NCBI GenBank assembly: GCA_022842845.1
Contig: JALHOT010000006.1
Coordinates: 110,526-174,525 of the forward strand
DNA from: Cyclobacteriaceae bacterium
GTDB taxonomy: Bacteria; Bacteroidota; Bacteroidia; Cytophagales; Cyclobacteriaceae
DNA: 64,000 nt
Reading direction: 5' to 3'
Positions 22,759 to 51,085 of the stretch are shown here, piece after piece. Every line of letters starts with the position of its first letter. The stretch's first letter is position 1. The position numbers were made by a program, and so were the translations under genes. A model generated the notes under the pieces. The model was not told the origin of the DNA. It did not search any database and worked only from the letters and a program-made list of their open reading frames with translations.

Positions 22759-22768
22759 TCATGTTTTA

Positions 22769-25624: not shown

Positions 25625-25628
25625 AATA

Positions 25629-26234: not shown

Positions 26235-26245
26235 AGCTGTAGGGC

Positions 26246-28036: not shown

Positions 28037-28046
28037 ACGCCTGCAT

Positions 28047-29087: not shown

Positions 29088-29099
29088 GGTATAGAGAGA

Positions 29100-29456: not shown

Positions 29457-29471
29457 GGTAGTTTAGTTTAA

Positions 29472-30418: not shown

Positions 30419-30446
30419 ACCTAATTATTTAAGGGTTTATCGATCG

Positions 30447-30490
30447 AGGTCATCATCCATCGATTGTTAACACAACCGATGGATGCACCT
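30447..30490. other. Strong intergenic stem-loop between the MCP gene and cheW, without a U-tract
   Basis: CATCCATCG...CGATGGATG perfect 9-bp arms, inner TTGT/ACAA and outer AGGT/ACCT pairs. Confidence 0.6.
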
Positions 30491-30498
30491 GAGCCTTT

Positions 30499-33099: not shown

Positions 33100-33133
33100 A
33101 AATCTTGATTTAACGATGTGTGTCTAGTTTAAT

Positions 33134-33301
33134 TTATAAGAGGCCTGCGGCATGTCCGATCATTACCAGGAACCAGGCAAGAGAGTATATAATAAAGAGT
33201 ATAGGGATAGTCCATGCAGCTATTACCAGAAACTGAATAAACCCTGAGCGCAGTGGCATCCATGTTTTATTGAGTCTGATCAATAGGGCCTTGTTCATCA
33301 T
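33134..33301 (-). CDS. 55-aa hydrophobic membrane peptide (not in the ORF track)
   Basis: Manual translation MMNKALLIRLNKTWMPLRSGFIQFLVIAAWTIPILFIIYSLAWFLVMIGHAAGLL*. The ATG lies 2 nt after the upstream stop, and the ORF fills the gap before the MCP. Confidence 0.7.
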   Translation of the reverse strand: MMNKALLIRLNKTWMPLRSGFIQFLVIAAWTIPILFIIYSLAWFLVMIGHAAGLL

Positions 33302-33303
33302 AA

Positions 33304-33828
33304 TTAGTTAAGACAAGTATGGTGAAAATCGAAATCGCTCACAGTGGGATATTTGATGACTGTAAGTTGCCTTGTTTGCCAGGTGTAGGGTCTTTGAGAA
33401 AATTGAATAAGCTCATTACCTTCTTTAATTAGCTTCTGTATTACAGGCCCCAAACTATCAGCCACCTCACCTTGTTGCTCAGCTCTTTCCAGCATCTCTT
33501 TGCGCACCATCGCATTTGTGTTAGTCCAACGCTCACCCTTCATGATTTTATAAAAAAGTGTTCTGGATGCTTGCGTAGATTTGCAAAAGCTTACAACAGC
33601 AGCATCATCGGCAAATGACCGAATTGCTTGTAGGAGTAATTGAGAAGACTTACCAACAGTTATGATTAATAAATGATGTTGATGGCTCATCATCATTACT
33701 TCATGATAATATGTACTCAAACCACCGAGATAAGCCAATACCTGCGTTTCATTGAAATTAGCCTTATGTCGAAGTTGATGAGGTATCAAATTCAGGTCAA
33801 TTTCTGCCGATGTAATAATAGCCTCCAT
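33304..33828 (-). CDS. Hypothetical protein, first gene of the che operon
   Basis: 174-aa ORF on the same strand, downstream of a terminator and a regulatory motif; no recognisable motif. Confidence 0.7.
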   Translation of the reverse strand: MEAIITSAEIDLNLIPHQLRHKANFNETQVLAYLGGLSTYYHEVMMMSHQHHLLIITVGKSSQLLLQAIRSFADDAAVVSFCKSTQASRTLFYKIMKGERWTNTNAMVRKEMLERAEQQGEVADSLGPVIQKLIKEGNELIQFSQRPYTWQTRQLTVIKYPTVSDFDFHHTCLN

Positions 33829-33923
33829 ACCTGTTGTTTTTTATGTAAAGATGGCTTTGATCCTAGCGTAACTCAATCCGCGAATACTTGTATTTTAATC
33901 TCCTGTTATCTACCGAAAATCAA

Positions 33924-33939
33924 TCAGTAGAACTACGTA
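33924..33939. promoter_or_regulatory. 16-bp pseudo-palindromic operator, copy 1 (TCAGTAGAACTACGTA)
   Basis: About 96 bp upstream of the che operon start; 15/16 identical to the reverse complement of the copy at 49190. Confidence 0.7.
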
Positions 33940-33974
33940 GTGCTGCTTGTCATTTTTGAATGAACTGTATGGGC

Positions 33975-34012
33975 AAAAAAATAGCGCCACTCCCCAACAG
34001 AGAATGACGCTA
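33975..34012 (-). terminator. Intrinsic terminator after the PAS kinase
   Basis: Minus strand TAGCGTCATTCTC-tgttg-GGGAGTGGCGCTA followed by T7. Confidence 0.85.
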
Positions 34013-34044
34013 GTTCCTAACCTCCTAAAACAATATTTATATGT

Positions 34045-35229
34045 TTATTCAGACTGATTAAGCAGCTTTTTTCGATTGATCAACTTACCCTTAGGACTAT
34101 TGGGAATATATACCTTGAAAACACTTCCGAAACCCACTTCAGAATTAAGACTTATGTTTCCTCCTAATTGCTCTACCCCTTCTTTCGCTATATACAAGCC
34201 TAAACCTGCGCCTTTAGAATGCACGGAGGCCTTGTAAAACATATTAAAGATCGATTCAAAATACTGTTTGGCAATACCAATACCATTGTCGTGTATTTCA
34301 ATCAATACTGCATCGGAGGTAACCTCCGTAGTAATGTTTATAAATGAGTGTGCTTTATTGACATCGACAAACTGAATGGCATTTCTGATCAGGTTATCCA
34401 AAACAATTTCAATTCTATCTGAATCGTTATAAAATAAACTTGATCCCCTGACACTCACTTGGATTTTGATTTTTCCGAAGCTTTCATCTCCGCAATGGTT
34501 ATTGATAATTTTCCAAATCAATGATTCAAAATCAATCTTTTCACTATGAATATTTTTATAAGTTGTTTTAGAGAAACTTATAATGTCATGAATGATTTTG
34601 TCTAACTTATGAGTACTGGTCTCAATTTTATCTGCATACTCTACCAAAGTATTATCTTTCGAATCCATTCTGATAAGATTGACTAAGCCCATAATCGTAG
34701 TTAATGGCGCCCGTAAATCATGGGAGGTGCTATATAGAAACTTCTCCATCTGATGGTTAATCTTGGCCAGCTGTTGGTTTTTCAACTCCAGGTTCTGCTC
34801 AAAAGCCACCCTTTCAGAAATATCAAGAGCAGTCCAGTTAATCATGGGTTCTCCCAGTTCGTTAGTTTGTATTTGAACATTCACAAGGGCGACAATCTTC
34901 TTTCCACTTAAGGATTTGAAGTTAACAGCTAAACCCTGCACCCGATGTTCGCGTATTACACGGCTCTTTAATTTTTCGTATTCGGAGGGATCATGAAAAA
35001 GATCAGCAATAATAAATCCTTTGGCTCTTTTGTACTGGTTGAATCCAAAAGTTTCTACAAAAAGTCTGTTGCTGAACTGGAGTTGATCTTGTAGGGAGGA
35101 GCGAAAGATGATTTCAAAAGTATTATCAACAAACGAGCGATATAGGTTACGGAGTCTTAGGGCCTGCTTCCTGCGCTCTAAATCCTCCTCACTGCCATCT
35201 TTAATTAAATCTTGGTTCACCGCAATCAT
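34045..35229 (-). CDS. Cytoplasmic PAS sensor histidine kinase (HisKA)
   Basis: PAS, H-box SHDLRAPL, N box NLIRNAI, G1 DNGIGI, G2 GAGLGL. Confidence 0.92.
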   Translation of the reverse strand: MIAVNQDLIKDGSEEDLERRKQALRLRNLYRSFVDNTFEIIFRSSLQDQLQFSNRLFVETFGFNQYKRAKGFIIADLFHDPSEYEKLKSRVIREHRVQGLAVNFKSLSGKKIVALVNVQIQTNELGEPMINWTALDISERVAFEQNLELKNQQLAKINHQMEKFLYSTSHDLRAPLTTIMGLVNLIRMDSKDNTLVEYADKIETSTHKLDKIIHDIISFSKTTYKNIHSEKIDFESLIWKIINNHCGDESFGKIKIQVSVRGSSLFYNDSDRIEIVLDNLIRNAIQFVDVNKAHSFINITTEVTSDAVLIEIHDNGIGIAKQYFESIFNMFYKASVHSKGAGLGLYIAKEGVEQLGGNISLNSEVGFGSVFKVYIPNSPKGKLINRKKLLNQSE

Positions 35230-35301
35230 ATCTGCCCGATTTCACAACAAAGTTGGATCAGAAAAGCAGTGTAATCAATACAAAGAATTCAGGAATTTTA
35301 A

Positions 35302-35317
35302 TGGGTATAAATACGTA
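35302..35317. promoter_or_regulatory. 16-bp operator, copy 2 (TGGGTATAAATACGTA)
   Basis: About 73 bp upstream of the 35229 start; matches TnnGTAnAAnTACGTA. Confidence 0.55.
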
Positions 35318-35332
35318 GGTAATGTGTTACAC

Positions 35333-35986
35333 TTAGTTGATGATTTGTAACTGCCTTGCCTTCTTTACCAATTCGATAGCATTTTTTACAGTAAACTTTT
35401 TCATCAGGTTGGCTCGATGCGTCTCGACCGTACGCGGGCTGATGAATAATTTATCAGCCATTTGCTGACTAGTCAACCCTTCATCAATGAGTTGTATAAT
35501 CTCAACTTCTCTATTGGTGAGCTTCACTATTTCCTCGGGTTGTCTTTTACGCGTAACATTTTGCTTATACTTAGTCAAAATAACTTCTTGCACCTTCTGA
35601 CTGAAATATGTCTTGCCTTGTAAAATAGCCCGAACGGCATACTCTAATTCTTGTCCACTTTCGCTTTTCACTACATATCCTTTCACACCACTTTCAATAC
35701 AACGGCTTATGTAGTCCTCATCGTCATACATGGACAGCATGAGGATATTAGCATTGCTATCCATGTCAAGCACTTTTTTGGCAGCATCCATACCATTCAT
35801 GTCGGGCATGGAAATATCTAAGATTAAAAGATTGGGTTTAAGGGCAGCATATTTGTCAATGGCTTCCTGGCCATTAGATGCTTCGCCCACTACATGAAAA
35901 TCCTTTGCCTGTTTTAAAAGATTCTTTACGCCTTCACGAATCATCGCGTGGTCATCTGCCAATACTATCGTATACTTATTAGACAT
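35333..35986 (-). CDS. NarL/FixJ-family response regulator (REC + LuxR HTH)
   Basis: LADDH, LDISMP, GYVVK; HTH LTNREVEIIQLIDEGLTSQQMADKLFISPRTVETHRANLMKK. Confidence 0.95.
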   Translation of the reverse strand: MSNKYTIVLADDHAMIREGVKNLLKQAKDFHVVGEASNGQEAIDKYAALKPNLLILDISMPDMNGMDAAKKVLDMDSNANILMLSMYDDEDYISRCIESGVKGYVVKSESGQELEYAVRAILQGKTYFSQKVQEVILTKYKQNVTRKRQPEEIVKLTNREVEIIQLIDEGLTSQQMADKLFISPRTVETHRANLMKKFTVKNAIELVKKARQLQIIN

Positions 35987-35999
35987 TCAATTTTCCATT

Positions 36000-37400
36000 T
36001 TATTTGATCGGTACTTCTGCAATAATAAGCGTTCCCCGCTTATTATCACTCTCGATGGTCAATTTACCACCCATCATTTCAGTACGTTCGCGCATATTAA
36101 CAAGGCCATGGTGCGGCTTCCCATCATTCACAGGTTTGATTCCAATGCCATTGTCTTCCACTATGAGTCTTATGTTCTCCTGATTACTCATCAGTTGGAG
36201 ACTGATGGTGCTGGCTTGTGCATGTCGTATAGCATTGTTAATAGCCTCTTGTGCAATTCTATAGAAATTCACCTTTTGATTCTGCTCAACTGCCGGCACC
36301 TCACCTGTTTGTTGAAAGGTAACAGCTACGGTTAATGTTTCATGGATCTGCTTGCAGAGCGACTTTAAGCAGGTACTCAGATCAAAATCTTTCAGCTTAG
36401 AGGGTAAGAGATTTTCTGAAATTCTTACAGATTCTTGTATGGCCTCATCCATCAATTTACTGATATCAACAGCTTTGTTTTTATCACTCACAAGCATATT
36501 GATATTCATTTTAATAGCATTGAGCATTTGACCCAAGCCATCATGCAGATCTTTGGCGATACGGCTGCGCTCCTTTTCCTGGCCTTCAATTAAGGCAGCC
36601 ACCCGTGTATTTTCAAATTCTCGCAGCAAGCGGGCATGTTCTACCTTCTCCGTTAAGTCTTTAAACACCAACACATAACCAATTTGCTCTCCCCTTTTAT
36701 CAGTAATGGTACTAATGGTTCCATCTCCGATGGGTATTAACTTATTCTTTAACCGCAAAGATAAGCCCACCTGCAGGGTGTTGACTTCCTTCCCTAAAAC
36801 ACATTGAATAGGGTTTACCGGAAAATCTAAAGTCGTATCGTTTTGCAGAGGTAATATTTCTGTAATACTTTTTCCAATTGCAGTTTCCAGCTGCACAGCG
36901 GTAAGACTTTCGGCCGCAGTATTGAGGTAGGTTACATTAAACTGACTATCTACAATAACCAGGGCATCGCTCATGGCACGCACCGTAGCGTAATATTTCT
37001 CTTCGCTCTTTCTCAGTCTTGACTCAATATCATGCTTGTATAAAGCCATTTCAAGCACCGTAAAAATTTCCCGATCTTCAAAAGGCTTGGTTAAATAGCC
37101 ATAAGGCTCCGTTATTTTAGCGCGCTGGATGGTATCCTTATCGGTAAGGGCAGTGATGTAAATGACAGGAAGATTAAATCTGGTTTTGATTACACCTGCG
37201 GTTTGTATACCATCGATTTCACCGTTGAGCATGATATCCATCAATACTAAATCAGGCTTGGTGTGCTCCAGAAACTGGAGCGCCTTTTCTCCAGCATCCA
37301 GTATACCATAAACATGGTATCCTTCGCTCTCCAAAGTTTTTTGAAGGTGATAGGCAACAATAAAGGAGTCCTCTACAATCAGGATACCAGCTTTAGACAT
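36000..37400 (-). CDS. Hybrid REC-PAS-HisKA_3 sensor kinase
   Basis: N-terminal REC (MDIML), PAS, H-box ERSRIAKDLHDGLGQ, RIAQEAINNA, EDNGIG, GLVNMRER. Confidence 0.92.
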   Translation of the reverse strand: MSKAGILIVEDSFIVAYHLQKTLESEGYHVYGILDAGEKALQFLEHTKPDLVLMDIMLNGEIDGIQTAGVIKTRFNLPVIYITALTDKDTIQRAKITEPYGYLTKPFEDREIFTVLEMALYKHDIESRLRKSEEKYYATVRAMSDALVIVDSQFNVTYLNTAAESLTAVQLETAIGKSITEILPLQNDTTLDFPVNPIQCVLGKEVNTLQVGLSLRLKNKLIPIGDGTISTITDKRGEQIGYVLVFKDLTEKVEHARLLREFENTRVAALIEGQEKERSRIAKDLHDGLGQMLNAIKMNINMLVSDKNKAVDISKLMDEAIQESVRISENLLPSKLKDFDLSTCLKSLCKQIHETLTVAVTFQQTGEVPAVEQNQKVNFYRIAQEAINNAIRHAQASTISLQLMSNQENIRLIVEDNGIGIKPVNDGKPHHGLVNMRERTEMMGGKLTIESDNKRGTLIIAEVPIK

Positions 37401-37496
37401 AGTGAGGGGTCAAATATTTAAACTAAACTAAATATATATAAACATGTGTGATTACATAATTCGTCATTATAAAACTTGACAATAATCAGTTGAATA

Positions 37497-40400
37497 CTAA
37501 GCCTCAATTTTAAAATCAATTTCAAACTTAGTGCCTTGCATTCGTTCAATTTTTACCTCTGCTTTTAATTGTTTGATAAATATTTCCAGCAATTCCATAC
37601 CAAAAGATCCATGCAAACCAGGTTTGATGTCTGCCGGAAGTGAAATGCCATTATCCGCAACCTGAAGGGTACAACTATTGCCTTGCCTTTTGAATTGAAT
37701 GGCAATTACACCAGATAGCTTATTTTTAAAGGCATGCTTATAGGCATTGACTACCAACTCGTTTACAATTAAACCACAATGGATGGCATAATCTAAATTG
37801 ATCTCTGCAGATTGGATGTCGACAGTCAAATCAATTTGTTTGTCCTGTTGCGCCATACTCACCTGTAAATCACGGATTAAACGCATCAGATAATCCTGCA
37901 CGTTTACCTGGTTAATGGAGCCTGTTTGCAACAAACGCTCGTGAATTAAAGCCACCGAACGTATTCTTTGTCGCATGTTATCCAGGAAGTCGCGCGACTC
38001 AGAAGGATTCATGCTGGCCATCTTGATAAAGATAATTGAGGATATCAGCTGAAGATTATTTTTGACCCTATGATGGATTTCCTTGATCAAAAGATCTTTT
38101 TCCTTCAAGGCATCGATCAATTGTAACTCAACCATTTTTTGATCGGTTACGTCTATGATCACGCCATTCCAGAGCACCCTGCCATCAGACATTTCGCTTG
38201 GGCGGCTCCTTCTTCGGAACCATCGCCAATCGCCATTCATTTGTTTAAAGCGATACTCAATATCAAAAACAGTAAGATTGGCATTTACTTCGTCTGTCTT
38301 ACGCTGGTTCTCTAGCTGATCATCTGGATGGATATGTGCTTCAAAAAGACCTGGATTGTCCAACAACTCCTGTACACTAAGTCCGGTAATGCCTTCTATA
38401 CCTGAGCTGAAATAAATGTATCTGCTCTCCTCCTTGTTTGATGGAAACTCTTCAAATTGATAAATGGCCACCCTCGGTAAATTATCACTGATTACTCTGA
38501 TACGCTCTCTACTCTCTTGCATTACATATTCAGCCTCCTTTAATTCTGTGATATTGTTGAGTGTAGTAATCACACTCATCACCTCTCCGCTGTCATCCAA
38601 ACGGGGAATCACATCTACCAAAAGCCAAATCCTCTCGTTTTTAGTCGGCTTGTTGACACCCATGACCACCCCTTTAATAGATTTCTTTGTACGGATGGCT
38701 ACAGGCACTGGCAATTCTTCAAAAGGGAAGGGTGCTCCATTTTCGCGGACGTGCTTCCAACGTGGATCATAAGAAGTCATACCAATTAATTGATCCTCTG
38801 TTAAACCCAATAAGTCCAAACCAGCTTGATTACTTGAAATAATCTCTGTATCTAAGCTTTGAACCAATACTCCTATGGTTAAATCACGAATGAGTGTTCT
38901 GTATCGATGTTCACTTTCTACAAGTGCTATCGCCTTTTGCTGTCGGTCAAACTCTGCATCAATGGCTTGAACGGCAAATGCAATATTTTCGGTTACCTCT
39001 TGCAGCAGGTTAATCTCCTTATCGGTAAAGAAATCCAGCTCATCTTTATAAAGTGTGAAAACAGCGATTACTTCCTTACCAATAACAATAGGAATAGCTA
39101 TGCTTGAACGGTAATTACGCTTCAGGGCTTCTTCACGCCATAAGTTATAAGCACTATCAGCGGCATTATTGATATTATTATTCACCGCTATTCTTTTCTC
39201 TCTGGCTGCAATACCTGTTGGGCCCCAACCGGCCGGCACATCTAAAATAGATATGGCTGGTATACTATCAAAATAATGATTTTCATGTCCACTCCATACC
39301 AGTGGCTCAACTTCTTGCAATTCATTATTCACCAAGCCTATCCAGGCCATCCTAAAGTTTCCGTATGTGATCGCTATATCGCAAACTTTCATAAATACCT
39401 CCTTCTTGGTACTCGCATGGACCACCATTTGGTTGATCTGACTCGTTACCAGATACAAGCGATTTGACTTGACCAATTCTTTTTCTGCTAACACCCTGGC
39501 GGTGATGTCCTCCATAATAGACAAATGAATGCCCGGTAAAATATTACTTACGGCACTATAGCGTGTGCTGAGAATTTTTCCCGTCTTGGTTTTTAAGTCA
39601 ATAGTACCTGCTTGTCGTCCCTCCTTTAAGAATTCCTGAAACGGATCTTGTTGCGCTGATTCATGGACAGTCACTTGGGCTACATTCAAGTGCACAAATT
39701 CTTCTGATGAATATTCTAATAGTTTAAGTGCAGCTTCATTACCACTGAGGTAATTGCCATGATCATCAGCCAGGATAATGGCATTGATGGCGTTATCGAA
39801 AATTGCTTTTAAACGTGACTGGCTTTCCTGTAGTTCCTCTTGTGCAAGCCTATGACTTGTCACATCAAAAATTACAGTGTACCACAAGGTAGATCCGTCT
39901 GCTTGCCGTTTTGGGGTACCCCTTGCCTCTAACCACTTTAATTTACCTGAGGATGTAGTAATACGCCATTGCCAGTGCCAGTGGCTTAGAGTTCTTCCCG
40001 ATTCCATGACAGAGGAAAACAAACCTTGCACATCGTCAGGGTGTACCATATCCCAAAGTACTTTTGCACTTTTCATCGACTCCTCAGGGTCGATTTCCCA
40101 AATTGTATAACAGCCGTTACTCATATAAGCAACAACATCATTACCATCTGGATAAAGTATGTATTGAAATATAGCACCGGGAATATTTTCGGTCATAGAC
40201 CTATAACGCTCCTCGCTGTCTTTTATAATCTGATTCTTTACCTCTTCTTCAGTAACATCATAATTAACACCAATCATCCTAAAAGGATTACCCTCGGCAT
40301 CATATTCTGGACTGCCAAAACCTTTCACGTACCTTATGGAAGCATCCGATTTTCTTGTAATCCTAAATACTATATCAAAATTTTTCTTCTCGGTTATGGC

Positions 40401-43400
40401 ATCTTGAACCTGTTTATTAAAATAGACACGATCCTCTTCCAACACTAATTCATTAAAGAATGAAAAGTCAATATCACGTCCTTCAGGTACGCCAAATATT
40501 TTATATTCCTGACTGTCCCAAATGATTCTTTCAGACTGGACATAGAACTCCCAAATGCCCATATTACCAGACTGCGTTGCCAACAGCAGACGATTATAGA
40601 CTTTCCCCAGCTCAATTTCGTTCAACTTCTGTTCAGTGGTATCAAGGCCTACACATTGAATACAAATAGGCTTACCTGCTTCATCCTGCAAGGCCACATA
40701 TTCCCAGTCAGTCCAGAAGTAACCACCAGCAGGATTGGGTTTTCGTAAAGAAACCGTTTGAACCTGTCCGGGATTTCGCAAGCACTTAGCCACCACTTCT
40801 AAACAATTGCCATGATCGTCAGTCAATATTGTTGACAGGGCATTGACTCCTATAATTTCTTCAGCTTTCAAACCAAACTTTTCATAAAACTTTTGGTTGG
40901 CAAAAGTATAGTTCCCCTGCAAGTCAGTTCTAATCAAAAAGCTTGATTGCGAATTGACCAGGGATTCAAAATAGCGCTTGCTTTGAAAGAGCTCTTGTTC
41001 TGCATTTTTCCTGGCAGAAATATCTGAAGCATTAAAAGACACACCAATGATCTCTCCCCGTTTATTGCGAACAGGTAAATACCTGATTTGATTCCAATAC
41101 TTAATAATAGGACTAAACGCAACTTCCCTTTCTATAGTAACGGACTCGCCCGACAATGCCATTTTGAAATTGCGAATCAAATCCTCCGCTAAATCCGGTG
41201 GTGTAAAATCCAGAATACTATCACCTATGTGTACTTCTCTTTGATAGATCCTGTTGGCACCTAAGGCTGCAGATTGATTAAAAGAACGAATCTTAAGTTC
41301 AGGATCTAGTAAGAAGGTTGCATCTGTAGAGGCATTAAGCACTGCATTTAATTCATCGTACACATTTTGTAACGACTGTTCTGATTGCTTCCTCTCAGTA
41401 ACATCCAAGAAACTCGCCACTGCTCCAATTAAAGTTCCTTTATAATCGAATAATGGTGCAGCATTTACGTTAAGCCACTTCAACTTTTCACCTGGGGCTA
41501 GGATGCCGTGCTCTACACTAATTGCTTGTTTCTTTTCTCGCAAGGCAATTGCTAAAGGTAATTTATCCTCTGGGTAAAGATTACCAGCCTCGTCTACTTG
41601 TCGCCAATCTTTCGAAGCAAAATACCGGTGTTCAATTTCTTCACTTTCAAGTGACAAGATATCGGCTGCTGTTTGATTAGCATAAGTGATGTCTCCGTTT
41701 ACATCAACCACTACTAATCCGCTAATCATGGTCTGGAAAATACTATGGAGTTTAGCTTCTGATGCTTGAAGCGCTAATTCGAGTTTCTTCCTTTTCGTAA
41801 TATTAATAGCAAGACCATCCCAGATTGTTTTCCCATCGGGCAGCCTTCGTGGATTTGAACGTGTTTGAATCCACTTAGTCTTTCCACTCGGGGTAAGTAT
41901 CCGGTATTCATGTTCAAAAGGTGTCAGGTCTCGTCTTGAAATTTCACCCTTCTGCAACATGGCTTCTAAATCGTTGGGCAACACCATGTTAAAACCAAGC
42001 ATCGGATCCTTTGCGAGCATATCAGCCGATATTTCAAACAAATCGTTTACCCCGCTACTTGCATAAGGGAAACTTTCTATTTCACCTTTTTCATTAACAA
42101 CATATTGATAAATGATTCCATCATTCAAGTTATTAGTAATGCTTCTCAATCGCTCCTCATCTTCTGCAATCTTCTTTTGGGCTTCTAGTTTTTCAGTAAT
42201 GTTCAGTGAAATACCTCCTACTGCGAATATATTATTCAAAGCATCTCTCAGCGGGAATTTATATTCAAGGAAAGTTTGTCCTTGCACAAGATGTTCAAAC
42301 TGCAGGGTTTCACCAGTATCCACAATGTGCTTATCTCTTACCCTGCACCAATCCGAAAATTCTTTATCAAAAATATCATAATCAGTATAACCTGCATGAA
42401 GGTCTTTATCCTTCATAAAATCTTTATACATTTTATTATAGAAAGTGTAGCGCCCTTCGAGATCTTTAATGAAGGTAACCATCGGTGCATGATCCATAAA
42501 TGTCTGCAAAGCTTGTTCGCTCCTTTGCATATCTTCCATGGCTTTTTTTAGACCTGTGATATCCGACTCAACAGCCATGTAACCGAGCAAGACACCTTCG
42601 TTAGATTTCAAAGGCTGCACCTCTATATCAAGCCAATATTTTCTGCCTGATTTGGAGTAGTTCAATAACTCTACCTTAAAGCTTTCTTCTTGCTTGAGAT
42701 AAGCCCTCATCTTGGCGATGGTTGCCTGATCGGTTTCCGGACCTTGTAGAAAAGAACCAGGCTTTTTGCCAATCACTTCTTCGAAAGCATACTCAGTTAT
42801 TTTTTCAAAACCCTTATTTACCCAGGTTATTAACCCTTTAGGATCTGTAAATATGACTGCATTGTTAGTTCTACTGGCAATAAGAGCAAGCTTTTCAACT
42901 TGGGCTGATAGCCGTTTTTTATCTGTAATATCCGTTGAAACAAAACTAACCCCTATTACCTGTTCATTCTCGTTTAGTATTGGATAATGCCTGAATAGCC
43001 ACCAAGAAGACTCCATACCAGGTACTTCCAGGTTAAACTCTCTTTCTGCTACCTGACCAGATAAGCCCAATGAGAAATCAGCATAGAATACATCCTTAGT
43101 CGATGGCAAAATATAATCGGCTATATTTTGGCCTTGAAACATTTCCGTGTTGAAAACAACCTTGGCATTTTGTGCAGCTACTCTGTTAAAGTCAAGAATA
43201 TTGGCATTATGATCCAATAAAATGGTGGAATCTGATTTACTATCAAAAAACGCACGCAATCGTCTTTGGGATTCAGTGAGTTTTAATTCAACTAACTTCC
43301 GATGGGTGACATCAGAAATATAACCATGCCACAATATGCTTCCGTCTGCTTCACGCTCTGGTGAGGCCTTGCCCTCGACCCATATAACATCACCATTGGA

Positions 43401-45530
43401 TAAAATGACACGGTATTCATCATACCATAGTGTCAAACTTTTAGCAGAATCTTCAATAGTTTTTTGCACATGGAGCAAATCGTCTGGGTGTATCACATTA
43501 AAAACACTTGATGCATCTTGGACCAGTGTTGCTGAATCTGCACTGTAAAAATAATTTACTGCTTCACTGGTATAAGGAAAGTGAGAAGTGCCATCAGGCC
43601 TTAGCCGATATTGATAGATAAATCCAAGTAGATGTTTGGCAATGTTATCAAATCGATCAAGTATTTCTGTTTTTACCTGATCTGCTTTCTTACGATCTGT
43701 TATATCACGTAAAACGATAGAACCCTTCAAGTCTCCGCTGGCATCAACAAAAAGACTTGAGCTTATCTCAGCAGTAAAGATTTCCCCTCCTTTACGCTTC
43801 ATCAACAATTCTCCTACATAAAATCCTTGCTCCTCTCGTTTCTGCAGGATTGCCTTTACTTTGACAGGATCCTCGGCCACCAGGCCCTCACGACCAAGCA
43901 TCATTATTTCTTGCTCGCTCATGTTAAAAATTTTACAAGCCGCAGGATTAGCAGATAATATTTTACCGTTCGGTTCGGTAAATAATATGGCATCGCCACT
44001 ATTTTCAATGATCAGTCTATTTCTTATTTCACTTTCAACTAAAATAGATTGATCAGCCTTCTGTCTTGTAATATCTTGTAAATAACCATACCAATAGTTT
44101 TTACCATTCTTTTCAACATAAGGATTCGAGTGACCTGCAATCCATTTCGTTAATCCATCTTTTGTAATTACCCGAAATTCGTAAGTCCATGGCTCATCGG
44201 AATAAAATGCATCTTTAATTGATGCATTCAATCCAACAAGATCAGCTGAGTGTACCATGGAAAATAAAGCATGGCTATCCTTGACTAGCGTATCGGCACT
44301 GATCCCAAGTAATGATTCGCAGCCTGCACTTACAAAAGGGAAAACTGCTTCCTCCTTATCAGTCAAATAAAAATTATAAATAACACCCGGAACGTTTTCA
44401 GAAAGACGTTTAAATAGTTCTGTGGTATCAATTAGTGTTTGTTCAACCTTTTTTACTTCAGAGATGTCATGAAAATTAACGAAGAGACCCAGTGGGCTTG
44501 GATAGATAAAAATCCTAAAAGCCTGGTTTGGGTCTAATACATTTACGTGATCAAGATGCTTACTTTGTTTAGTTATTAACACCTCCTGATAAGCTTCAAG
44601 AAGTTCGTTGCCCTGCATAAAAGGAAATAAGTCCACTATACTTTTTCCAATCATTTCTGTTGGCTCCATTTTCGCCATTGAAGAAAAAACTGAATTAACC
44701 ATCGTAAACCTAAGGTCATGATCCAAGGCAAAGAAGCCATCGGTTATGCCACTGAGCATCATATCCATTTGATCGGCCATGATATTGTGCTCTTTCTCCC
44801 TTCTTTTACGCTGTGTGATATCATTTCTGACAGAAAGAAAATCCGTTATCTTACCATATTCATTCACATAAGGCATAATAAACGTGTCAACCCAATAATA
44901 GCTACCGTCTTTAGCCTGGTTGCGGACTTCAGCATGCCAGGTTTTTCCCTGACTGATCGTCTTCCACATGTCTACCCAAAATTCTTTGTTGTGGTAATGA
45001 GAGTTAATAATACGATGATTCTTTCCTAACAACTCATATCTGGAGTATCCACTAATGGCTACGAATTTTTCATTCACAAAGGTGATGTTGCCTTTGCTAT
45101 CAGTCATTGAAACGATGCAAGAATTTTGAATCGCTTCTTTAAAAAAGTGGTCTTTGGAAACAACGGATAAAGGGTTTTGATTTATTATCTCATGCTGCTT
45201 TTCATGGCACTCTATTAAAACATAACGCTTTTTATGTTGGTTAAGTGGATGGAGGATAAGATCATATTGTTTTGATTCACCATTTCTTCTCGTAATGTTA
45301 CCATTAGTAATTTTCTTGCTCTTAGCCTTCAGTGCTTTTAATTGCCTGATAATAGTAAGATCTGACAGTAAAGTATCAAGGGTACTTGCCTTTAAAAACT
45401 TTTCGGTATAGCCAAAAGATTTAACGGCAGGCCTATTCGCCTCCACAATCAAGAGGCTCTTGCTATCAACAACAAGTAATGGAATGAGATGTGTGCTAAA
45501 GTACGATGGGAGCTGATATGGTGCTTTCAT
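37497..45530 (-). CDS. Giant (2677 aa) cytoplasmic multi-PAS/GAF sensor kinase, HisKA_2 type
   Basis: Roughly 18 PAS/PAC modules plus one GAF (AWIGLV), H-box EIHHRVKNNLQ, IVNELVVNAYKHAF, ADNGIS, FGMELL. Confidence 0.92.
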   Translation of the reverse strand: MKAPYQLPSYFSTHLIPLLVVDSKSLLIVEANRPAVKSFGYTEKFLKASTLDTLLSDLTIIRQLKALKAKSKKITNGNITRRNGESKQYDLILHPLNQHKKRYVLIECHEKQHEIINQNPLSVVSKDHFFKEAIQNSCIVSMTDSKGNITFVNEKFVAISGYSRYELLGKNHRIINSHYHNKEFWVDMWKTISQGKTWHAEVRNQAKDGSYYWVDTFIMPYVNEYGKITDFLSVRNDITQRKRREKEHNIMADQMDMMLSGITDGFFALDHDLRFTMVNSVFSSMAKMEPTEMIGKSIVDLFPFMQGNELLEAYQEVLITKQSKHLDHVNVLDPNQAFRIFIYPSPLGLFVNFHDISEVKKVEQTLIDTTELFKRLSENVPGVIYNFYLTDKEEAVFPFVSAGCESLLGISADTLVKDSHALFSMVHSADLVGLNASIKDAFYSDEPWTYEFRVITKDGLTKWIAGHSNPYVEKNGKNYWYGYLQDITRQKADQSILVESEIRNRLIIENSGDAILFTEPNGKILSANPAACKIFNMSEQEIMMLGREGLVAEDPVKVKAILQKREEQGFYVGELLMKRKGGEIFTAEISSSLFVDASGDLKGSIVLRDITDRKKADQVKTEILDRFDNIAKHLLGFIYQYRLRPDGTSHFPYTSEAVNYFYSADSATLVQDASSVFNVIHPDDLLHVQKTIEDSAKSLTLWYDEYRVILSNGDVIWVEGKASPEREADGSILWHGYISDVTHRKLVELKLTESQRRLRAFFDSKSDSTILLDHNANILDFNRVAAQNAKVVFNTEMFQGQNIADYILPSTKDVFYADFSLGLSGQVAEREFNLEVPGMESSWWLFRHYPILNENEQVIGVSFVSTDITDKKRLSAQVEKLALIASRTNNAVIFTDPKGLITWVNKGFEKITEYAFEEVIGKKPGSFLQGPETDQATIAKMRAYLKQEESFKVELLNYSKSGRKYWLDIEVQPLKSNEGVLLGYMAVESDITGLKKAMEDMQRSEQALQTFMDHAPMVTFIKDLEGRYTFYNKMYKDFMKDKDLHAGYTDYDIFDKEFSDWCRVRDKHIVDTGETLQFEHLVQGQTFLEYKFPLRDALNNIFAVGGISLNITEKLEAQKKIAEDEERLRSITNNLNDGIIYQYVVNEKGEIESFPYASSGVNDLFEISADMLAKDPMLGFNMVLPNDLEAMLQKGEISRRDLTPFEHEYRILTPSGKTKWIQTRSNPRRLPDGKTIWDGLAINITKRKKLELALQASEAKLHSIFQTMISGLVVVDVNGDITYANQTAADILSLESEEIEHRYFASKDWRQVDEAGNLYPEDKLPLAIALREKKQAISVEHGILAPGEKLKWLNVNAAPLFDYKGTLIGAVASFLDVTERKQSEQSLQNVYDELNAVLNASTDATFLLDPELKIRSFNQSAALGANRIYQREVHIGDSILDFTPPDLAEDLIRNFKMALSGESVTIEREVAFSPIIKYWNQIRYLPVRNKRGEIIGVSFNASDISARKNAEQELFQSKRYFESLVNSQSSFLIRTDLQGNYTFANQKFYEKFGLKAEEIIGVNALSTILTDDHGNCLEVVAKCLRNPGQVQTVSLRKPNPAGGYFWTDWEYVALQDEAGKPICIQCVGLDTTEQKLNEIELGKVYNRLLLATQSGNMGIWEFYVQSERIIWDSQEYKIFGVPEGRDIDFSFFNELVLEEDRVYFNKQVQDAITEKKNFDIVFRITRKSDASIRYVKGFGSPEYDAEGNPFRMIGVNYDVTEEEVKNQIIKDSEERYRSMTENIPGAIFQYILYPDGNDVVAYMSNGCYTIWEIDPEESMKSAKVLWDMVHPDDVQGLFSSVMESGRTLSHWHWQWRITTSSGKLKWLEARGTPKRQADGSTLWYTVIFDVTSHRLAQEELQESQSRLKAIFDNAINAIILADDHGNYLSGNEAALKLLEYSSEEFVHLNVAQVTVHESAQQDPFQEFLKEGRQAGTIDLKTKTGKILSTRYSAVSNILPGIHLSIMEDITARVLAEKELVKSNRLYLVTSQINQMVVHASTKKEVFMKVCDIAITYGNFRMAWIGLVNNELQEVEPLVWSGHENHYFDSIPAISILDVPAGWGPTGIAAREKRIAVNNNINNAADSAYNLWREEALKRNYRSSIAIPIVIGKEVIAVFTLYKDELDFFTDKEINLLQEVTENIAFAVQAIDAEFDRQQKAIALVESEHRYRTLIRDLTIGVLVQSLDTEIISSNQAGLDLLGLTEDQLIGMTSYDPRWKHVRENGAPFPFEELPVPVAIRTKKSIKGVVMGVNKPTKNERIWLLVDVIPRLDDSGEVMSVITTLNNITELKEAEYVMQESRERIRVISDNLPRVAIYQFEEFPSNKEESRYIYFSSGIEGITGLSVQELLDNPGLFEAHIHPDDQLENQRKTDEVNANLTVFDIEYRFKQMNGDWRWFRRRSRPSEMSDGRVLWNGVIIDVTDQKMVELQLIDALKEKDLLIKEIHHRVKNNLQLISSIIFIKMASMNPSESRDFLDNMRQRIRSVALIHERLLQTGSINQVNVQDYLMRLIRDLQVSMAQQDKQIDLTVDIQSAEINLDYAIHCGLIVNELVVNAYKHAFKNKLSGVIAIQFKRQGNSCTLQVADNGISLPADIKPGLHGSFGMELLEIFIKQLKAEVKIERMQGTKFEIDFKIEA

Positions 45531-45605
45531 GTTGCCTATTGTAGGTGTTACAATACAATAGGAAATGTAGCCATTAAAAAACTTTAAAACAGCCGTGCAA
45601 GTACG

Positions 45606-45621
45606 TAGGTAGATTTACGTA
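45606..45621. promoter_or_regulatory. 16-bp operator, copy 3 (TAGGTAGATTTACGTA)
   Basis: About 76 bp upstream of the giant kinase start; overlaps a second TACGTA. Confidence 0.55.
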
Positions 45622-45642
45622 ATTACCTTTGAATAAGATGAA

Positions 45643-46026
45643 TTAAATAGAACTAGCGGCAAAGGGTCTAGCAGCTTTTTTGAAATCTGCCTGGTCCCCT
45701 AATTCGTGCTTTGTAAAGTGATCGACAATATCCGCCTTATAATTAAGCTTAACCGCTAAGGCCTTACAATAAGCTGCTTCGTCAGCATGGATCTGGCCAT
45801 CCGCTTTGATGATGCGAAGTGCCCAGTACAATATGTCTGCCCGCGTGGGGGCATCTTTAAAGTCGTTTAAATTAACAGGGTGAGCTGCTTCTTGAATAGC
45901 ATGGTTATTCAAGCCTGCTTCTGCTAACAGGCTTTTTAATACATCTTTCTCTGTTTCATCAAACTTACCATCGATCGTTGCCAGGTGCACGAGTAGGTTT
46001 AATTTTTTTCGGATTACTTCTTCCAT
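45643..46026 (-). CDS. TerB-family (tellurite resistance/DjlA-like) protein
   Basis: Duplicated motif ATIDGKFDETE / IKADGQIHADE. Confidence 0.75.
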   Translation of the reverse strand: MEEVIRKKLNLLVHLATIDGKFDETEKDVLKSLLAEAGLNNHAIQEAAHPVNLNDFKDAPTRADILYWALRIIKADGQIHADEAAYCKALAVKLNYKADIVDHFTKHELGDQADFKKAARPFAASSI

Positions 46027-46074
46027 AAAAGGGTCATTTCGGCCTCAAGTTAATGGATTTAATAGAGTTACACA

Positions 46075-46090
46075 TCGGTGAAACTACGTA
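46075..46090. promoter_or_regulatory. 16-bp operator, copy 4 (TCGGTGAAACTACGTA)
   Basis: In the divergent gap between the TerB-like gene and the TPR kinase; 13/16 identical to copy 1. Confidence 0.6.
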
Positions 46091-46176
46091 TGTAGAATTG
46101 ATGATTTAAATCAATTCCTTGCTTAATCTTCTATAAAAAATGAAAAATTGTCTATCTTAGAAGTTGTAGTAGCCCC

Positions 46177-48078
46177 ATGATTCGCGCTGTAAGTATTTTT
46201 ATTTTTACCTGCATTGTTCTAGGTGCGCACTGTGTTAATAGTCAAATTTTAACAGATAGTTTACGAAAAGAATTAAAGAAAGAGCATGTTGACACAGTTC
46301 GGATAAAACTACTGCTTGCTTTTTCAGAAAATCAGATGTTTAGCAATTCTGATAGTGCCTTGTATTATGCCAACAAGGCCCTGGCTTTGGCCAACAGCAT
46401 TGGAAATACAGCCGGATCAATTGCAGCCATTAACAAAGTAGGACGCGCCTATTGGTCTAAAGGCAATCTTCAAGAAGGTCTCCGCTATTTTTTACAATCG
46501 CTGAAATTGGCTGAGCAGGAACAGCTACCCGAATTCATAGCACTCAACCAAGGCAGCATAGGACTTATCTTCTCCGGTTCGGGACTATACACCAAAGCCA
46601 TTGATTATTACAAAAATGCCCTGCTTTATTATCAACAAGAAAAAAATTACGAGCGTATAGCCGTACTGTATAACAATACAGGGAAAGGCTTTTTAAATAT
46701 GAATCAAACAGATTCTGCTGAATACTATTTTCTTGTATCTGATAGTGTAAAAAGAGTTCATGGCATTAACCTGCCCATCACAAGCTTTAATTTAGCCGAT
46801 CTCTATTTTCAGCTGGGGAAACTAAAGGAAAGCCTTGTATGGCTTGTTATCTGCGAGGCTGAAAGCCATACACGCAATGATGTAAGAGCCTTAATCCGCT
46901 GCTACCAGCTTCGAGCTGAAATTGCGCTGAAAGAGGGGGATTATACAAAGGCAGAAGACCTGGCTAAACAGGCGGTAAGCATGGCTAATGAAACCCGAAT
47001 TAAAGAATTGATTTACATTACGTACCGGACCTACTCTTCTGTACTCCATAAGTTAAGAAAGCACGAGACTGCCTACGACTATTTTGAACTCTACACGCAC
47101 TACCGCGACAGCCTGCAAAGCATTAATACGCAAAACTCTTTGCTTGCCTATGAGTTTCTACTCAATGAGCAAGAGATTAAAAGTTTAAAAGCACAGCAAA
47201 AAATACAAGAAGAAAACAGCGAAAGAGAAAGACTGATCATGGCTGGTTTGCTTGTACTGCTCATCATCATTGCCTCCCTTGCCTATTATTTATTCAGATC
47301 CAGAGAACAACGTAAAAAATTAAATTTACAATTATCCCAACGGAACGAGGCCATCTCGCAGCAAAACAAGCTCCTTAGCGAAAAGGCAGAAAAACTTCAG
47401 GCCTTAAATAATTTTCGCAATACTATACTTTCAGTTATTACCCATGATTTAAGAGGGCCTTTTACTTCCCTGCAAAGTTTGTTAAACAGCTCACTTAAGG
47501 AGCAGCTAAGCACGCAGGATGTCGAAATGATTTTAATAGAACTCAGCAAACAATTAAGAACTATCACCGCTTTAACAGACACCCTGCTTACCTGGGGTAG
47601 CTCGCATCGGGATAATTACGAGATCAGTCTTAAAGAAATTGATTTAAATACCTTCTTCACAGAACAAGTACTTTTCTTTCAGGACAATGCCAAAGCCAAA
47701 AAAATTACACTGCGCAACGAGGTATACAATACCTTTAGATTGCAGGCAGATGAGAATATACTTAGCGTAATTATCAGAAACTTTATCAGCAATTCCTTAA
47801 AGTATTGTAATGCTGGTGATACCATTAGCCTGCAAGCCCAGATCAGTGGTGACTATATACTGCTTGAAGTGGTGGACAGTGGACCGGGTATTCCGAAAGA
47901 AGTATTGAGTCGTTTACTTTTCAATCCGGTACAATCCAAAGCCGATGGCAGTGGTTATAAGGGTGCGGGCATAGGCCTGGTATTGTGTTCTGAGCTGGCC
48001 AAGCGTATGCAGGGAAGTATTAGACTTGAGAGTGAAGAAGGTAAAGGCACCAGAGCCCTCTTTCGTTTCCCCAAATAA
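46177..48078 (+). CDS. TPR-repeat membrane sensor histidine kinase
   Basis: Signal peptide, TPRs, TM, H-box THDLRGP, NFISNSLKY, DSGPG, GAGIGL. Confidence 0.9.
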   Translation: MIRAVSIFIFTCIVLGAHCVNSQILTDSLRKELKKEHVDTVRIKLLLAFSENQMFSNSDSALYYANKALALANSIGNTAGSIAAINKVGRAYWSKGNLQEGLRYFLQSLKLAEQEQLPEFIALNQGSIGLIFSGSGLYTKAIDYYKNALLYYQQEKNYERIAVLYNNTGKGFLNMNQTDSAEYYFLVSDSVKRVHGINLPITSFNLADLYFQLGKLKESLVWLVICEAESHTRNDVRALIRCYQLRAEIALKEGDYTKAEDLAKQAVSMANETRIKELIYITYRTYSSVLHKLRKHETAYDYFELYTHYRDSLQSINTQNSLLAYEFLLNEQEIKSLKAQQKIQEENSERERLIMAGLLVLLIIIASLAYYLFRSREQRKKLNLQLSQRNEAISQQNKLLSEKAEKLQALNNFRNTILSVITHDLRGPFTSLQSLLNSSLKEQLSTQDVEMILIELSKQLRTITALTDTLLTWGSSHRDNYEISLKEIDLNTFFTEQVLFFQDNAKAKKITLRNEVYNTFRLQADENILSVIIRNFISNSLKYCNAGDTISLQAQISGDYILLEVVDSGPGIPKEVLSRLLFNPVQSKADGSGYKGAGIGLVLCSELAKRMQGSIRLESEEGKGTRALFRFPK

Positions 48079-48107
48079 CTTGTTTATTCAAGCATTAATA
48101 TATCTTA

Positions 48108-48668
48108 TTGTATTCTTTTAACGAAGCACTGAATAGCTTGTCGCTTATGGATATGAAAGAAATTGTTAAGCAGTTTTTACAATCGGAAAAACAGCTATCT
48201 GACAAACAATTACTCTGGCAAGAGAAAACCCGACCACTGATCAAATCGGTGCTGGAAAAAATTAAGAATCAACTCATGCTCGACATAGAGGTAGAAGAAG
48301 ATGATTCAGTGGTAAATCATGAAAGCATCTATTTGTCATTTGGTAAAAAGCCCAGCGGACTGTATGACAACAAAGAAAACTTCTTCAATGAGCAAGCCAG
48401 CCTCAATGGCTTTATCACTAAGAACGGAGCAGAACTCTTTTACTCCATTGGCTACCGGGGCGAGGTCATTGTCTGGATGTCTTATCCCTTTGTAGAAGGG
48501 GTGATTGAGGAAGAAGAGAAGTTACATAAAATTCGTGTTGCCGAGCAGGAAAATATCGATCAGGCAAGCATAGAAGAAGACATCCAGTACTTTCTCACCC
48601 ATGTTACGCATTGGAATCTCGGTAAAATCGGGCAGGAAAAGATTGGGTTCAGAATTAACGGACAATAA
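48108..48668 (+). CDS. Hypothetical protein (start may be MDMKE, slightly downstream)
   Basis: 186-aa ORF with protein-like composition following the kinase. Confidence 0.65.
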   Translation: MYSFNEALNSLSLMDMKEIVKQFLQSEKQLSDKQLLWQEKTRPLIKSVLEKIKNQLMLDIEVEEDDSVVNHESIYLSFGKKPSGLYDNKENFFNEQASLNGFITKNGAELFYSIGYRGEVIVWMSYPFVEGVIEEEEKLHKIRVAEQENIDQASIEEDIQYFLTHVTHWNLGKIGQEKIGFRINGQ

Positions 48669-48934
48669 ATCTTTTTTAAAAAATCACTCGTACTGGCAGA
48701 TTGGTTTATGTTTCTGTTTTAAAGCAAAACGATAAAACTATAGGCTACCCTTTATACTTGTTGAATAAAAAAGTGAAAAAGGAAATCAATCAAGATCAAA
48801 GCAGCAACGAGATGCTACAGGCAGCGATAAAATATTAGTTACGTTAATGGTAGCGTACGTAAAGCGTTTGAGAAACTCCAGACAGGATAAAGCCAACTTC
48901 TACATGGCGCGGCTTATGGCGAGATTGGCTGTTG

Positions 48935-49138
48935 TTATTGTGATAGCTTCAATTGCAGAGCCAGGATCATACACTGTGTTTTTAAGTGATGCTCTGTGTT
49001 CACAGGGGCATTGCTTAACCACTGTTGTAACCACTGGCGGTGGCTTACATTTTTTTGATTATTAACACTTACTTCTGTGTCTAGAGAAATTGAATTAAAT
49101 TCTTGTGCAGAAGATACTGAGGAATTTTTGTGCGCCAT
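48935..49138 (-). CDS. Small hypothetical protein (67 aa)
   Basis: ATG start with the best copy of the 16-bp motif 52 bp upstream; no homology recognised. Confidence 0.4.
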   Translation of the reverse strand: MAHKNSSVSSAQEFNSISLDTEVSVNNQKNVSHRQWLQQWLSNAPVNTEHHLKTQCMILALQLKLSQ

Positions 49139-49189
49139 GTAGCCTTATTTAAGTAAACAAATTTATCCCGAATTCTCGGGTGAAATACT

Positions 49190-49205
49190 TACGTAGTTCT
49201 ACAGA
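49190..49205. promoter_or_regulatory. 16-bp operator, copy 5 (TACGTAGTTCTACAGA)
   Basis: Reverse complement TCTGTAGAACTACGTA differs from copy 1 at one position. Confidence 0.7.
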
Positions 49206-49387
49206 TATACGGATTGTAAGAAAAGCTTGATTTTCAATCAATATTGAGCGCATCAAGGGCCCTCAAAATACCTTTTCATTGAAATTGAAGCGATTTAGAC
49301 CATTTTAAAGCCAAGTATGCCCCTTTCTGTCGGATGTTAAAAGTAATGTTTCGAAGAAATTGTCAAGCTCAACTACGTAGAAAGCAT

Positions 49388-49552: not shown

Positions 49553-49599
49553 AAACCATCTTCTTGCAAGCAAGTATGGAACCGAATTCCCCCGAAGAA

Positions 49600-51081: not shown

Positions 51082-51085
51082 AAAA

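Follow-up and report, generated by a model that had tools for sequence, protein, structure and literature searches.

A candidate 16-bp inverted-repeat operator at five promoters of a Cytophagales signalling island, probably bound by a linked NarL/FixJ-family response regulator

HisKA_3 histidine kinases are the usual partners of NarL/FixJ-type response regulators, and at nir of Escherichia coli NarL occupies a site of 7-2-7 geometry near -69.5. For FixJ, selection from random DNA (SELEX) defined two classes of sites, GTAGTTTCCC and GTAMGTAG, and the fixK promoter carries the 16-bp imperfect palindrome TAAGTAATTTCCCTTA (PMC4999443). SsrB, encoded with the Salmonella SPI-2 (Salmonella pathogenicity island 2) genes, works from degenerate palindromes with one strong heptamer, and its sites were found by phylogenetic footprinting (PMC2837388). 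Here we describe a 16-bp near-palindrome (the box) that occurs five times in a 64-kb stretch of Cyclobacteriaceae DNA (the whole analysed stretch, called the window). The five copies precede a chemosensory (che) operon, a 394-aa kinase gene, an operon headed by a giant PAS kinase, a TerB-like gene and a 67-aa gene. The operon of the giant kinase also encodes a candidate regulator with a receiver (REC) domain and a GerE/LuxR-type helix-turn-helix (HTH) domain (35333..35986, minus strand; Pfam). In its layout the system corresponds to a classical two-component regulon with autoregulation and with operators of the LuxR type, 16-bp inverted repeats. The predicted operator sequence for this Bacteroidota clade is new, as are its putative targets and the apparent pairing of a FixJ helix with its half-site in distant phyla.

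An earlier note on this DNA had claimed five such near-palindromes, all lying between genes at a short distance from minus-strand start codons. We found that the pattern TNNGTRNANNTACGTA matched exactly five times in the window (33924, 35302, 45606 and 46075 on the plus strand, 49190 on the minus strand) while 0.04 matches were expected, and none of 100 dinucleotide shuffles reached five. All five sites were intergenic in a greedy open reading frame (ORF) map, in which intergenic DNA makes up 7.3% of the window, and they stood 48-95 bp from the downstream minus-strand start codons, in agreement with the claimed spacing. Since TNNGTRNANNTACGTA was derived from the five sites themselves, independent checks were run. 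In a pattern-free test that compared intergenic with coding DNA for every 3+3 or 4+4 dyad at spacers from 0 to 14 (23,040 dyads), TACGTA, ACGTAG and ACTACGTA ranked first; TACGTA had eight intergenic copies in five regions against 0.48 expected (p 5e-8 among the 23,040 dyads), and ACTACGTA was the top 4+4 dyad (p 6e-10). We also employed a weight matrix trained on 36 sites from orthologous loci only, with the window left out. The five sites were the top five of the window under this matrix, with scores of 20.3, 17.7, 17.3, 16.5 and 10.8, and it revealed no further strong site in the 64 kb. The best scores in shuffles had a mean of 11.7 and a maximum of 16.8; by matrix, four of the sites were individually significant and the fifth, at 46075, was weak. 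Per 100 kb, the number of matches scoring at least 13 was 13.7 for the orthologous loci; unrelated low-GC loci had about 1 and high-GC loci 0.1. The dyad test, the matrix ranking and these control rates show that the motif is not equally common in coding or unrelated intergenic DNA. The five-box observation is thus confirmed, and a chance cluster is excluded.

The orthologous set comprised 15 loci of Chryseotalea, Chryseolinea and relatives with 78 intergenic regions (15.4 kb), the window not included. The four most enriched dyads in it were CGT-N5-TAC, GTA-N4-TAC, CTA-N1-GTA and TACGTA. CGT-N5-TAC and GTA-N4-TAC were present in 31-39 copies in 22 of the 78 regions, with 2-4 expected (p 1e-24 to 1e-26), and TACGTA was found in 18 of the 78 (p 2e-19). 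In every locus with enough flanking sequence, and likewise in the metagenome loci L089-L091, the boxes were confined to three promoters. One is found 43-78 bp before the leading PAS-kinase gene of the operon whose last gene encodes the regulator, another lies between the regulator stop codon and the next kinase gene, and the third precedes the 174-aa ORF or the methyl-accepting chemotaxis protein (MCP) gene that heads the che operon, where a full box is followed 23 bp later by a CCGTA half-site. Conservation at orthologous promoters, which the earlier note had proposed as a check, was therefore borne out: the same promoters have the box in genera that share only 50-85% identity in the flanking proteins. 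The orthologous PAS-kinase operon promoters carry perfect or near-perfect palindromes (TACGTAGATCTACGTA in L005, TACGTATATCTACGTA in L001, TACGTATTTCTACGTA in L002). Because these sites are nearly symmetrical, the ideal operator would be TACGTAG-NN-CTACGTA, two inverted heptamers separated by a 2-bp gap with the core GTA-N4-TAC, and the pseudo-palindromes of the window read as this predicted operator with one strong and one degenerate half.

The regulator is the only protein with a DNA-binding (HTH) domain in the conserved cluster and is always linked to the boxes, one of which lies right after its gene and another before its operon. Its membership of the NarL/FixJ family is clear from Pfam (Response_reg 4.1e-26, GerE 1.9e-18) and from full-length matches to the structures of VraR/LiaR, NarL, DevR and DesR, but its scores stay below every NCBIfam equivalog cut-off. 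Among nine orthologs the REC domain and linker vary (57-84% identity overall), and the stretch GLT..(Q/E)MAD(K/R)LFIS(P/A)RTVETHRANLMKK is essentially invariant; a conserved DNA target would explain an invariant HTH next to a receiver and linker free to vary. The recognition helix is ISPRTVETHRANLM, and comparison with structures in the PDB placed it closest to those of SsrB (ISIKTVETHRMNMM, 2jpc) and Sinorhizobium meliloti FixJ (ISPRTVEVHRANVM, 1x3u). The 174-aa protein encoded by the first gene of the che operon was also considered as the binding factor and was rejected, since L002, L003, L012 and L014 have the boxes and lack this gene.

The same type of helix was found beside the same palindrome in two unrelated lineages. 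In L149 (71% GC), CCACGTAGGTCTACGCAT (matrix score 16.5) precedes the ATG of a regulator gene by 16-33 bp; the encoded helix, ISPRTAEAHRASVM, is of the FixJ type and close to that of the window regulator. In L168/L169 (60% GC), TCCGTAGTTATACGGA (score 18.5) is found 42 bp past a GerE gene whose helix, LFISPRTVETHRANLMRK, is identical, and it precedes genes for a REC protein and a PAS kinase. No match besides that in L149 was found in about 980 kb of high-GC control loci with other helices; these controls came from a metagenome scan that matched receiver-domain peptides, and most of them encode an unrelated high-GC regulator family (helix LSVKTVEAHKFNLMRK) that lacks boxes. The sole linked DNA-binding protein, its invariant HTH, the FixJ-like helix and sites, and the two unrelated loci that combine helix and palindrome all point to the linked regulator, and we think with good confidence that it binds the boxes. 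Taken together, computation and comparison support the reading of the boxes as a candidate regulon. We also observed that in L168 the site TCCGTAGTTATACGGA (1690-1705) is followed by the weaker CACGTTCGTCTACGAT (1719-1734), 29 bp from start to start, with the GerE gene on one side of the two sites and the REC and PAS-kinase genes on the other; a tandem layout of boxes may be general for this helix type.

FixJ is a described protein that the regulator resembles closely in helix and sites. Both join a REC domain to a LuxR-type HTH, both have the nearly identical helix ISPRTVE(T/V)HRAN(L/V)M, and both go with a 16-bp imperfect palindrome. The SELEX classes GTAMGTAG and GTAGTTTCCC fit the TA(C/A)GTAG half-site and GTAGTTTCAC of the box at 46075; that box, TACGTAGTTTCACCGA, is identical to the fixK site TAAGTAATTTCCCTTA at 11 of 16 positions by hand comparison only. 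GTACGTAG is found at position 45600, and the orthologs often have TAAGTA half-sites. FixJ is moreover an activator that binds two adjacent regions upstream of and overlapping -35 at fixK, and PAS kinases give the input to FixJ and, as predicted, to the regulator here. The two differ in host (Alphaproteobacteria versus Bacteroidota), in the promoters, which here seem to be of the -33/-7 type, and in the right half-site, which is TACGTA-like here and CCCTTA in fixK. The adjacent kinase is a REC-PAS-HisKA_3 protein instead of FixL, and in place of fixK and nifA the regulator is predicted to control kinase genes, a che operon and small genes; no fixK- or nifA-like gene was found among the annotated genes of the window. 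We tried the assignment of the regulator as a FixJ ortholog and rejected it, as the NCBIfam FixJ model stayed below its cut-off (83.4 against 255 bits) and the full-length FixJ structure 5xso matched only with E 8.5e-11.

The earlier note had spoken of a NarL regulator, of which the family assignment stands and the likeness to NarL itself does not, the helix and box being nearer to those of FixJ. NarL and NarP of E. coli share with this system the 7-2-7 geometry, the length of 16 bp, the outer TAC, a HisKA_3-type partner kinase and sites upstream of -35, and NarL is 34% identical to the regulator over 192 residues (structure 1a04, E 2.6e-34). However, the heptamer is TACGTAG here and TACYYMT in NarL sites, so that positions 4-7 (GTAG) do not fit YYMT; no nitrate-related genes are present here, and the NarL equivalog cut-off is missed (150.8 against 250 bits). 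The base-contacting residues K188, V189 and K192 of NarL are aligned with E, T and A in the regulator, and a NarL-type heptamer is for this reason not expected. SsrB has the closest solved HTH, shares the tolerance of one degenerate half-site and likewise has sites before the ssrA-ssrB operon that encodes it, but its sites are spaced 7-4-7 (a 4-bp spacer and an 18-bp site, against 2 bp here), and heptamer, host and targets (type III secretion) differ. A search of the literature on TACGTA with LuxR-type regulators, on Cytophagales chemosensory systems and on this system found nothing relevant.

The primary-sigma promoter consensus of Bacteroidota, as seen in Bacteroides and Flavobacterium, is -33 TTTG and -7 TAnnTTTG, with 17-23 nt between the two, and elements resembling it follow the boxes at regular distances. 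The highest score in the window (20.3) belongs to che box 1 (33924..33939, minus strand; TACGTAGTTCTACTGA as read on that strand), upstream of the 174-aa ORF, the MCP gene and the che genes. Its orthologs lie upstream of the 174-aa ORF or MCP genes in L001, L002, L003, L005, L006, L012, L014, L089 and L091. Twenty-three bp downstream lies the half-site che box 2 (33901..33916, minus; TCGGTAGATAACAGGA), whose CCGTA/CGGTA is found at the same offset in all orthologous che promoters. The putative che core promoter (33846..33879, minus) consists of a -33-like GGATTG (33874-33879) and a -7-like CATCTTTA (33846-33853), two blocks whose distance is fixed across loci. Box 1 is 69-70 nt from the -7-like element in 8 of 10 loci, which places box 2 at about 46-47 nt.

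The kinase box (35302..35317, minus; TACGTATTTATACCCA; score 16.5) lies between the regulator stop codon and the start of the 394-aa kinase gene. L001-L007, L089, L090 and L091 have it too, in many cases as a pair of boxes at a distance of 21-23 bp. The corresponding putative core promoter (35248..35281, minus) has a -33 GTATTG (35276-35281) 20 nt past the box and, after another 20 nt, a -7 CAACTTTG (35248-35255). A distance of 46-47 nt from box to -7 and a [G/C]TATTG hexamer (GTATTG in six, CTATTG in L006) occur together in 7 of 10 loci. The -33/-7-like pairs GTATTG-N20-CAACTTTG and GGATTG-N20-CATCTTTA are pattern matches to the general consensus given above. In these two promoters we noted a conserved A-tract, AAAAT(A/C/T)C, 3-6 nt past the promoter-proximal box in most species (window 35290-35301 and 33885-33900); it could act like an UP element, bend the DNA or belong to a longer operator.

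The PAS-kinase operon box (45606..45621, minus; TACGTAAATCTACCTA; score 17.7) belongs to the promoter of the giant PAS kinase, REC-PAS-HisKA_3 kinase and regulator genes. TAnnTTT(G/C/A) follows it after 36-37 nt in 7 of 8 loci, and in the window the putative -7 element is TACATTTC (45562..45569, minus). A weak second box overlaps the main one (45592..45607, minus; TACGTACTTGCACGGC; score 8.3) and is common to the window and L001, and in L002, L003 and L005 a CGTA half-site follows the main box. The TerB-like gene box (46075..46090, minus; TACGTAGTTTCACCGA) is the weak one with score 10.8 and lies in a divergent region shared with a TPR kinase gene. It is kept at the same place in L001, a Chryseotalea locus (position 532, TACGTATTTCCACTGA), and a TA..TTGA element stands 22 nt past it (TAACTTGA in the window, TACATTGA in L001). 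Finally, the 67-aa gene box (49190..49205, minus; TCTGTAGAACTACGTA as read on that strand; score 17.3) lies inside a block of about 90 bp that is nearly 100% identical to L086/L087 and has diverged or unalignable flanks. A perfect -7 consensus, TAAATTTG (49158-49165), stands 24 nt past this box, which makes the 67-aa gene the only putatively box-controlled gene with a perfect -7.

With the G of the -7 element set at -7, we infer box centres at about -44.5, -46.5, -58.5 and -68.5, and a second site at about -91.5 to -92.5. All these positions are upstream of or abut the -33 element, and both -7 and the expected start stay uncovered. Across genera with otherwise unalignable intergenic DNA, the distance between box and -7 is constant and roughly in phase with the DNA helix, which suggests an activator that contacts RNA polymerase.

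From these observations we consider it fairly likely that the boxes are dimer operators of the response regulator encoded at 35333-35986 and that it acts on them as an autoregulated activator. The regulator would be phosphorylated, most probably by the adjacent REC-PAS-HisKA_3 kinase, a likely cognate because HisKA_3 kinases generally pair with NarL-type regulators; the N-terminal REC domain of this hybrid kinase could in turn take phosphate from the giant HisKA_2 kinase or from CheA. Once phosphorylated, the regulator would bind upstream of or next to -33 at the five promoters and activate them. One target would be its own operon (giant PAS kinase, hybrid kinase and regulator), giving positive autoregulation; the others would be the 394-aa kinase gene, the che operon, the TerB-like gene and the conserved 67-aa gene. 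The predicted targets include at least three kinases, and the adjacent TPR kinase is a possible fourth. On conserved synteny and shared operators a larger scheme can also be drawn, in which the che cluster and the kinase block form a closed circuit: the Che pathway would feed REC hybrid kinases, these the regulator, and the regulator the che operon, its own kinases and small effectors. We put this forward as a tentative idea that has a minor chance of being right.

Other explanations were weighed against the proposed activator. The boxes might be real but bound by another factor encoded elsewhere, a paralogous LuxR-type protein or some other dimer, with the linked regulator controlling other genes. 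Only 64 kb of this genome is visible and Bacteroidota genomes carry many LuxR-type regulators; in addition, L088 has the regulator with no box within 1.5 kb downstream. Yet boxes and regulator gene travel together in about 15 genomes with one box always directly after the regulator stop codon, HTH and box are both invariant, the same helix type accompanies the same palindrome in two unrelated lineages, and helix and box together match FixJ and its sites, which makes another factor unlikely. A regulator that binds the boxes and acts mainly as a repressor, or in both directions, would agree with the general knowledge that NarL-family proteins act both ways, and with the boxes of the TerB-like and 67-aa genes, which end 22-24 nt upstream of the -7-like element and thereby overlap the -33 region, where a bound protein could keep RNA polymerase out. 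However, the boxes at the three best-conserved promoters are 36-70 nt upstream of -7 and clear of the core promoter, the spacings (24, 36, 46 and 70 nt) are fixed and roughly helically phased in the pattern of polymerase contact, and no box overlaps the -7 element or expected start; a mainly repressing or dual role is, in our view, distinctly unlikely. The window sites also hold GAAC and CGTA, which faintly resemble the -35/-10 words of extracytoplasmic function (ECF) sigma factors, one of which is encoded at 4285-4797, and the box at 35302 follows directly on a stop codon, as a terminator might. But GAAC is absent from perfect orthologous palindromes such as TACGTAGATCTACGTA, and the motif is a dyad used in both orientations and in tandem copies 23 bp apart, whose distance from a standard -7 takes four different values. 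Its stem has only 3-7 bp, is AT-rich and lacks a T-run, and in the loci scanned it never occurs in coding DNA or as scattered repeats. An alternative-sigma core-promoter element and a structural or repeat element (a terminator or a repetitive extragenic palindrome, REP) were both rejected on the dyad symmetry, the variable distance to -7 and the missing T-run, and either is very improbable. Coincidence has in its favour that the pattern was fitted post hoc to an AT-rich word, and that TACGTA occurs 14 times in the window against 6.7 expected, a count reached in 1 of 100 shuffles; the shuffle, dyad, matrix and control-locus statistics and the positional conservation across genera refute it, and its probability is negligible.

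Several further points weigh against the activator model. The score of the 46075 site falls inside the range of the shuffles. Since the matrix was trained on sites gathered by their GTA-N4-TAC core, the six core positions owe part of their invariance to this selection. L098 and the short contigs L170 and L171 hold similar helices and no box. All -33 and -7 assignments are pattern matches, and the promoters of the TerB-like and 67-aa genes have a shorter -33/-7 spacing or an imperfect -7. No RNA-seq run holding the window sequence was found, the matching runs being DNA metagenomes only. The scan covered 64 kb in this genome and about 20 kb in each relative; beyond it the regulon may extend further, and another, unlinked regulator may carry the same helix.

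The window has 39% G+C. The REC-PAS-HisKA_3 hybrid kinase (36000..37400, minus; Pfam REC, PAS, HisKA_3 and HATPase_c) shares 83% identity with its counterpart in Chryseotalea sanaruensis and 86% with the one in a Cytophagales metagenome-assembled genome (MAG), which indicates that the genome belongs to the Cytophagales (Bacteroidota). Its gene ends 13 bp upstream of the regulator gene, and the two adjoin in all orthologous loci. The first gene of this operon, predicted to be box-controlled, encodes the giant 2677-aa multi-PAS/GAF HisKA_2 kinase (37497..45530, minus; Pfam), with at least 13 PAS domains by our reading of the Pfam matches. The first operon kinase has 828, 953, 961, 970, 2677, 2940 or 3174 aa in the orthologs and the window, which suggests that PAS/GAF modules are rapidly gained and lost ahead of the conserved HisKA_2 core. 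On the other side of the regulator, the predicted target gene of the kinase box encodes a 394-aa HisKA kinase (34045..35229, minus; Pfam HisKA and HATPase_c); the earlier note had called it a PAS kinase, and no Pfam PAS domain was identified in it. The putative target che operon (21925..33828, minus; Pfam, NCBIfam and conserved synteny) starts with the 174-aa ORF (33304-33828, minus), which is without a known domain, and continues with genes for a PAS-MCP, CheW, CheD, CheY, CheB, CheA, a CheC-like protein, a PAS/GAF protein and CheR (21925-33099, minus; Pfam, NCBIfam). The order PAS-kinase, hybrid kinase, regulator, (kinase), (174-aa ORF), MCP, CheW-CheD-CheY-CheB-CheA is kept in L001-L014, which represent Chryseotalea, Chryseolinea, Pseudochryseolinea and related MAGs with protein identities of 50-90%, and the same order is found in L089-L091. 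Upstream of the giant kinase lie the putative target gene of a 127-aa TerB-like protein (45643..46026, minus; Pfam, synteny), for which an exact-sequence look-up of the protein found no record, and the TPR-HisKA kinase gene (46177-48078, plus; Pfam).

The 67-aa gene (48935..49138, minus), another predicted target, has no family match and is conserved in L086/L087. The C-terminal 40 residues of its protein (QKNVSHRQWLQQWLSNAP..TEHHLKTQCM.LALQLKLSQ) are near-identical to a 69-aa ORF of these loci, with three conservative changes, and the N-terminus varies. Because this C-terminal sequence is kept at the protein level despite many DNA changes, the 67-aa ORF appears to be a real gene. We also looked for homologs of a 186-aa protein as a footprint for the fourth and fifth sites; the distant P0002 and P0003 stand in unrelated contexts, and only L086/L087 were useful. 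The recurrence of the motif that the earlier note had seen at 49371 was upheld as the half-site TACGTAGAAA and failed as a full box, lying outside the top 30 matrix matches. It was therefore rejected as a sixth box, even though TACGTAGAAA is kept in L086. The half-site (window 49374-49383; L086 1301-1310) and part of the 45 bp upstream are conserved in surrounding DNA that is unalignable. It might be a monomer site, or the promoter remnant of a gene that once followed, before an island was inserted. The 6S RNA that had been supposed next to it was not recovered: no Rfam family reached its gathering score in the window and none had E <= 1 in 48600-49800. Nor was a tRNA found near 49371.

The synteny with L086 stops just past 49384, where L086 runs on into a greB-like gene. 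From about 50 kb to the window end the G+C content falls to 32-36%, and this part encodes a tyrosine integrase (51611-52876) and an Mrr-like protein with a restriction-endonuclease domain (53679-55079). The stretch 49385-64000 looks like an integrated island beside the signalling block. Two short palindromes, GCGCAAGCGTTACGCTTGTGC (49600-49621) and GCACAAGCGTGACGTTTGCAC (49708-49728), lie in a 600-bp non-coding stretch upstream of it and could be hairpin terminators or att-like repeats. Elsewhere in the window, a 320-aa protein (14224-15186, plus) matches Neur_chan_LBD (6e-7) and is probably a prokaryotic homolog of pentameric ligand-gated channels. The ECF-type sigma factor gene (4285-4797) is followed, within 2079-4797 on the minus strand, by an ORF without a family match and three consecutive DUF4252 proteins, an arrangement typical of sigma/anti-sigma modules in Bacteroidota and unrelated to the boxes.

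Altogether, the analysis offers a testable wiring diagram, with one regulator, five promoters and one 16-bp operator, for a Cytophagales signalling island that unites four histidine kinases (one of 2677 aa and largely PAS) with a complete che operon in a gliding, non-swimming lineage. As Chryseotalea sanaruensis and Chryseolinea serpens are cultured, the prediction is directly testable. It would extend the pairing of the FixJ-type helix with TA(A/C)GTAG from Alphaproteobacteria to Bacteroidota and two high-GC lineages. This pairing would help with the long-noted lack of a clean FixJ consensus, and the matrix could be used to predict targets of regulators with the same helix. The closed circuit, if true, would be a self-amplifying switch for a behavioural or developmental state in a non-flagellated glider, like Myxococcus Che3 and Pseudomonas Wsp, with a FixJ-type output.

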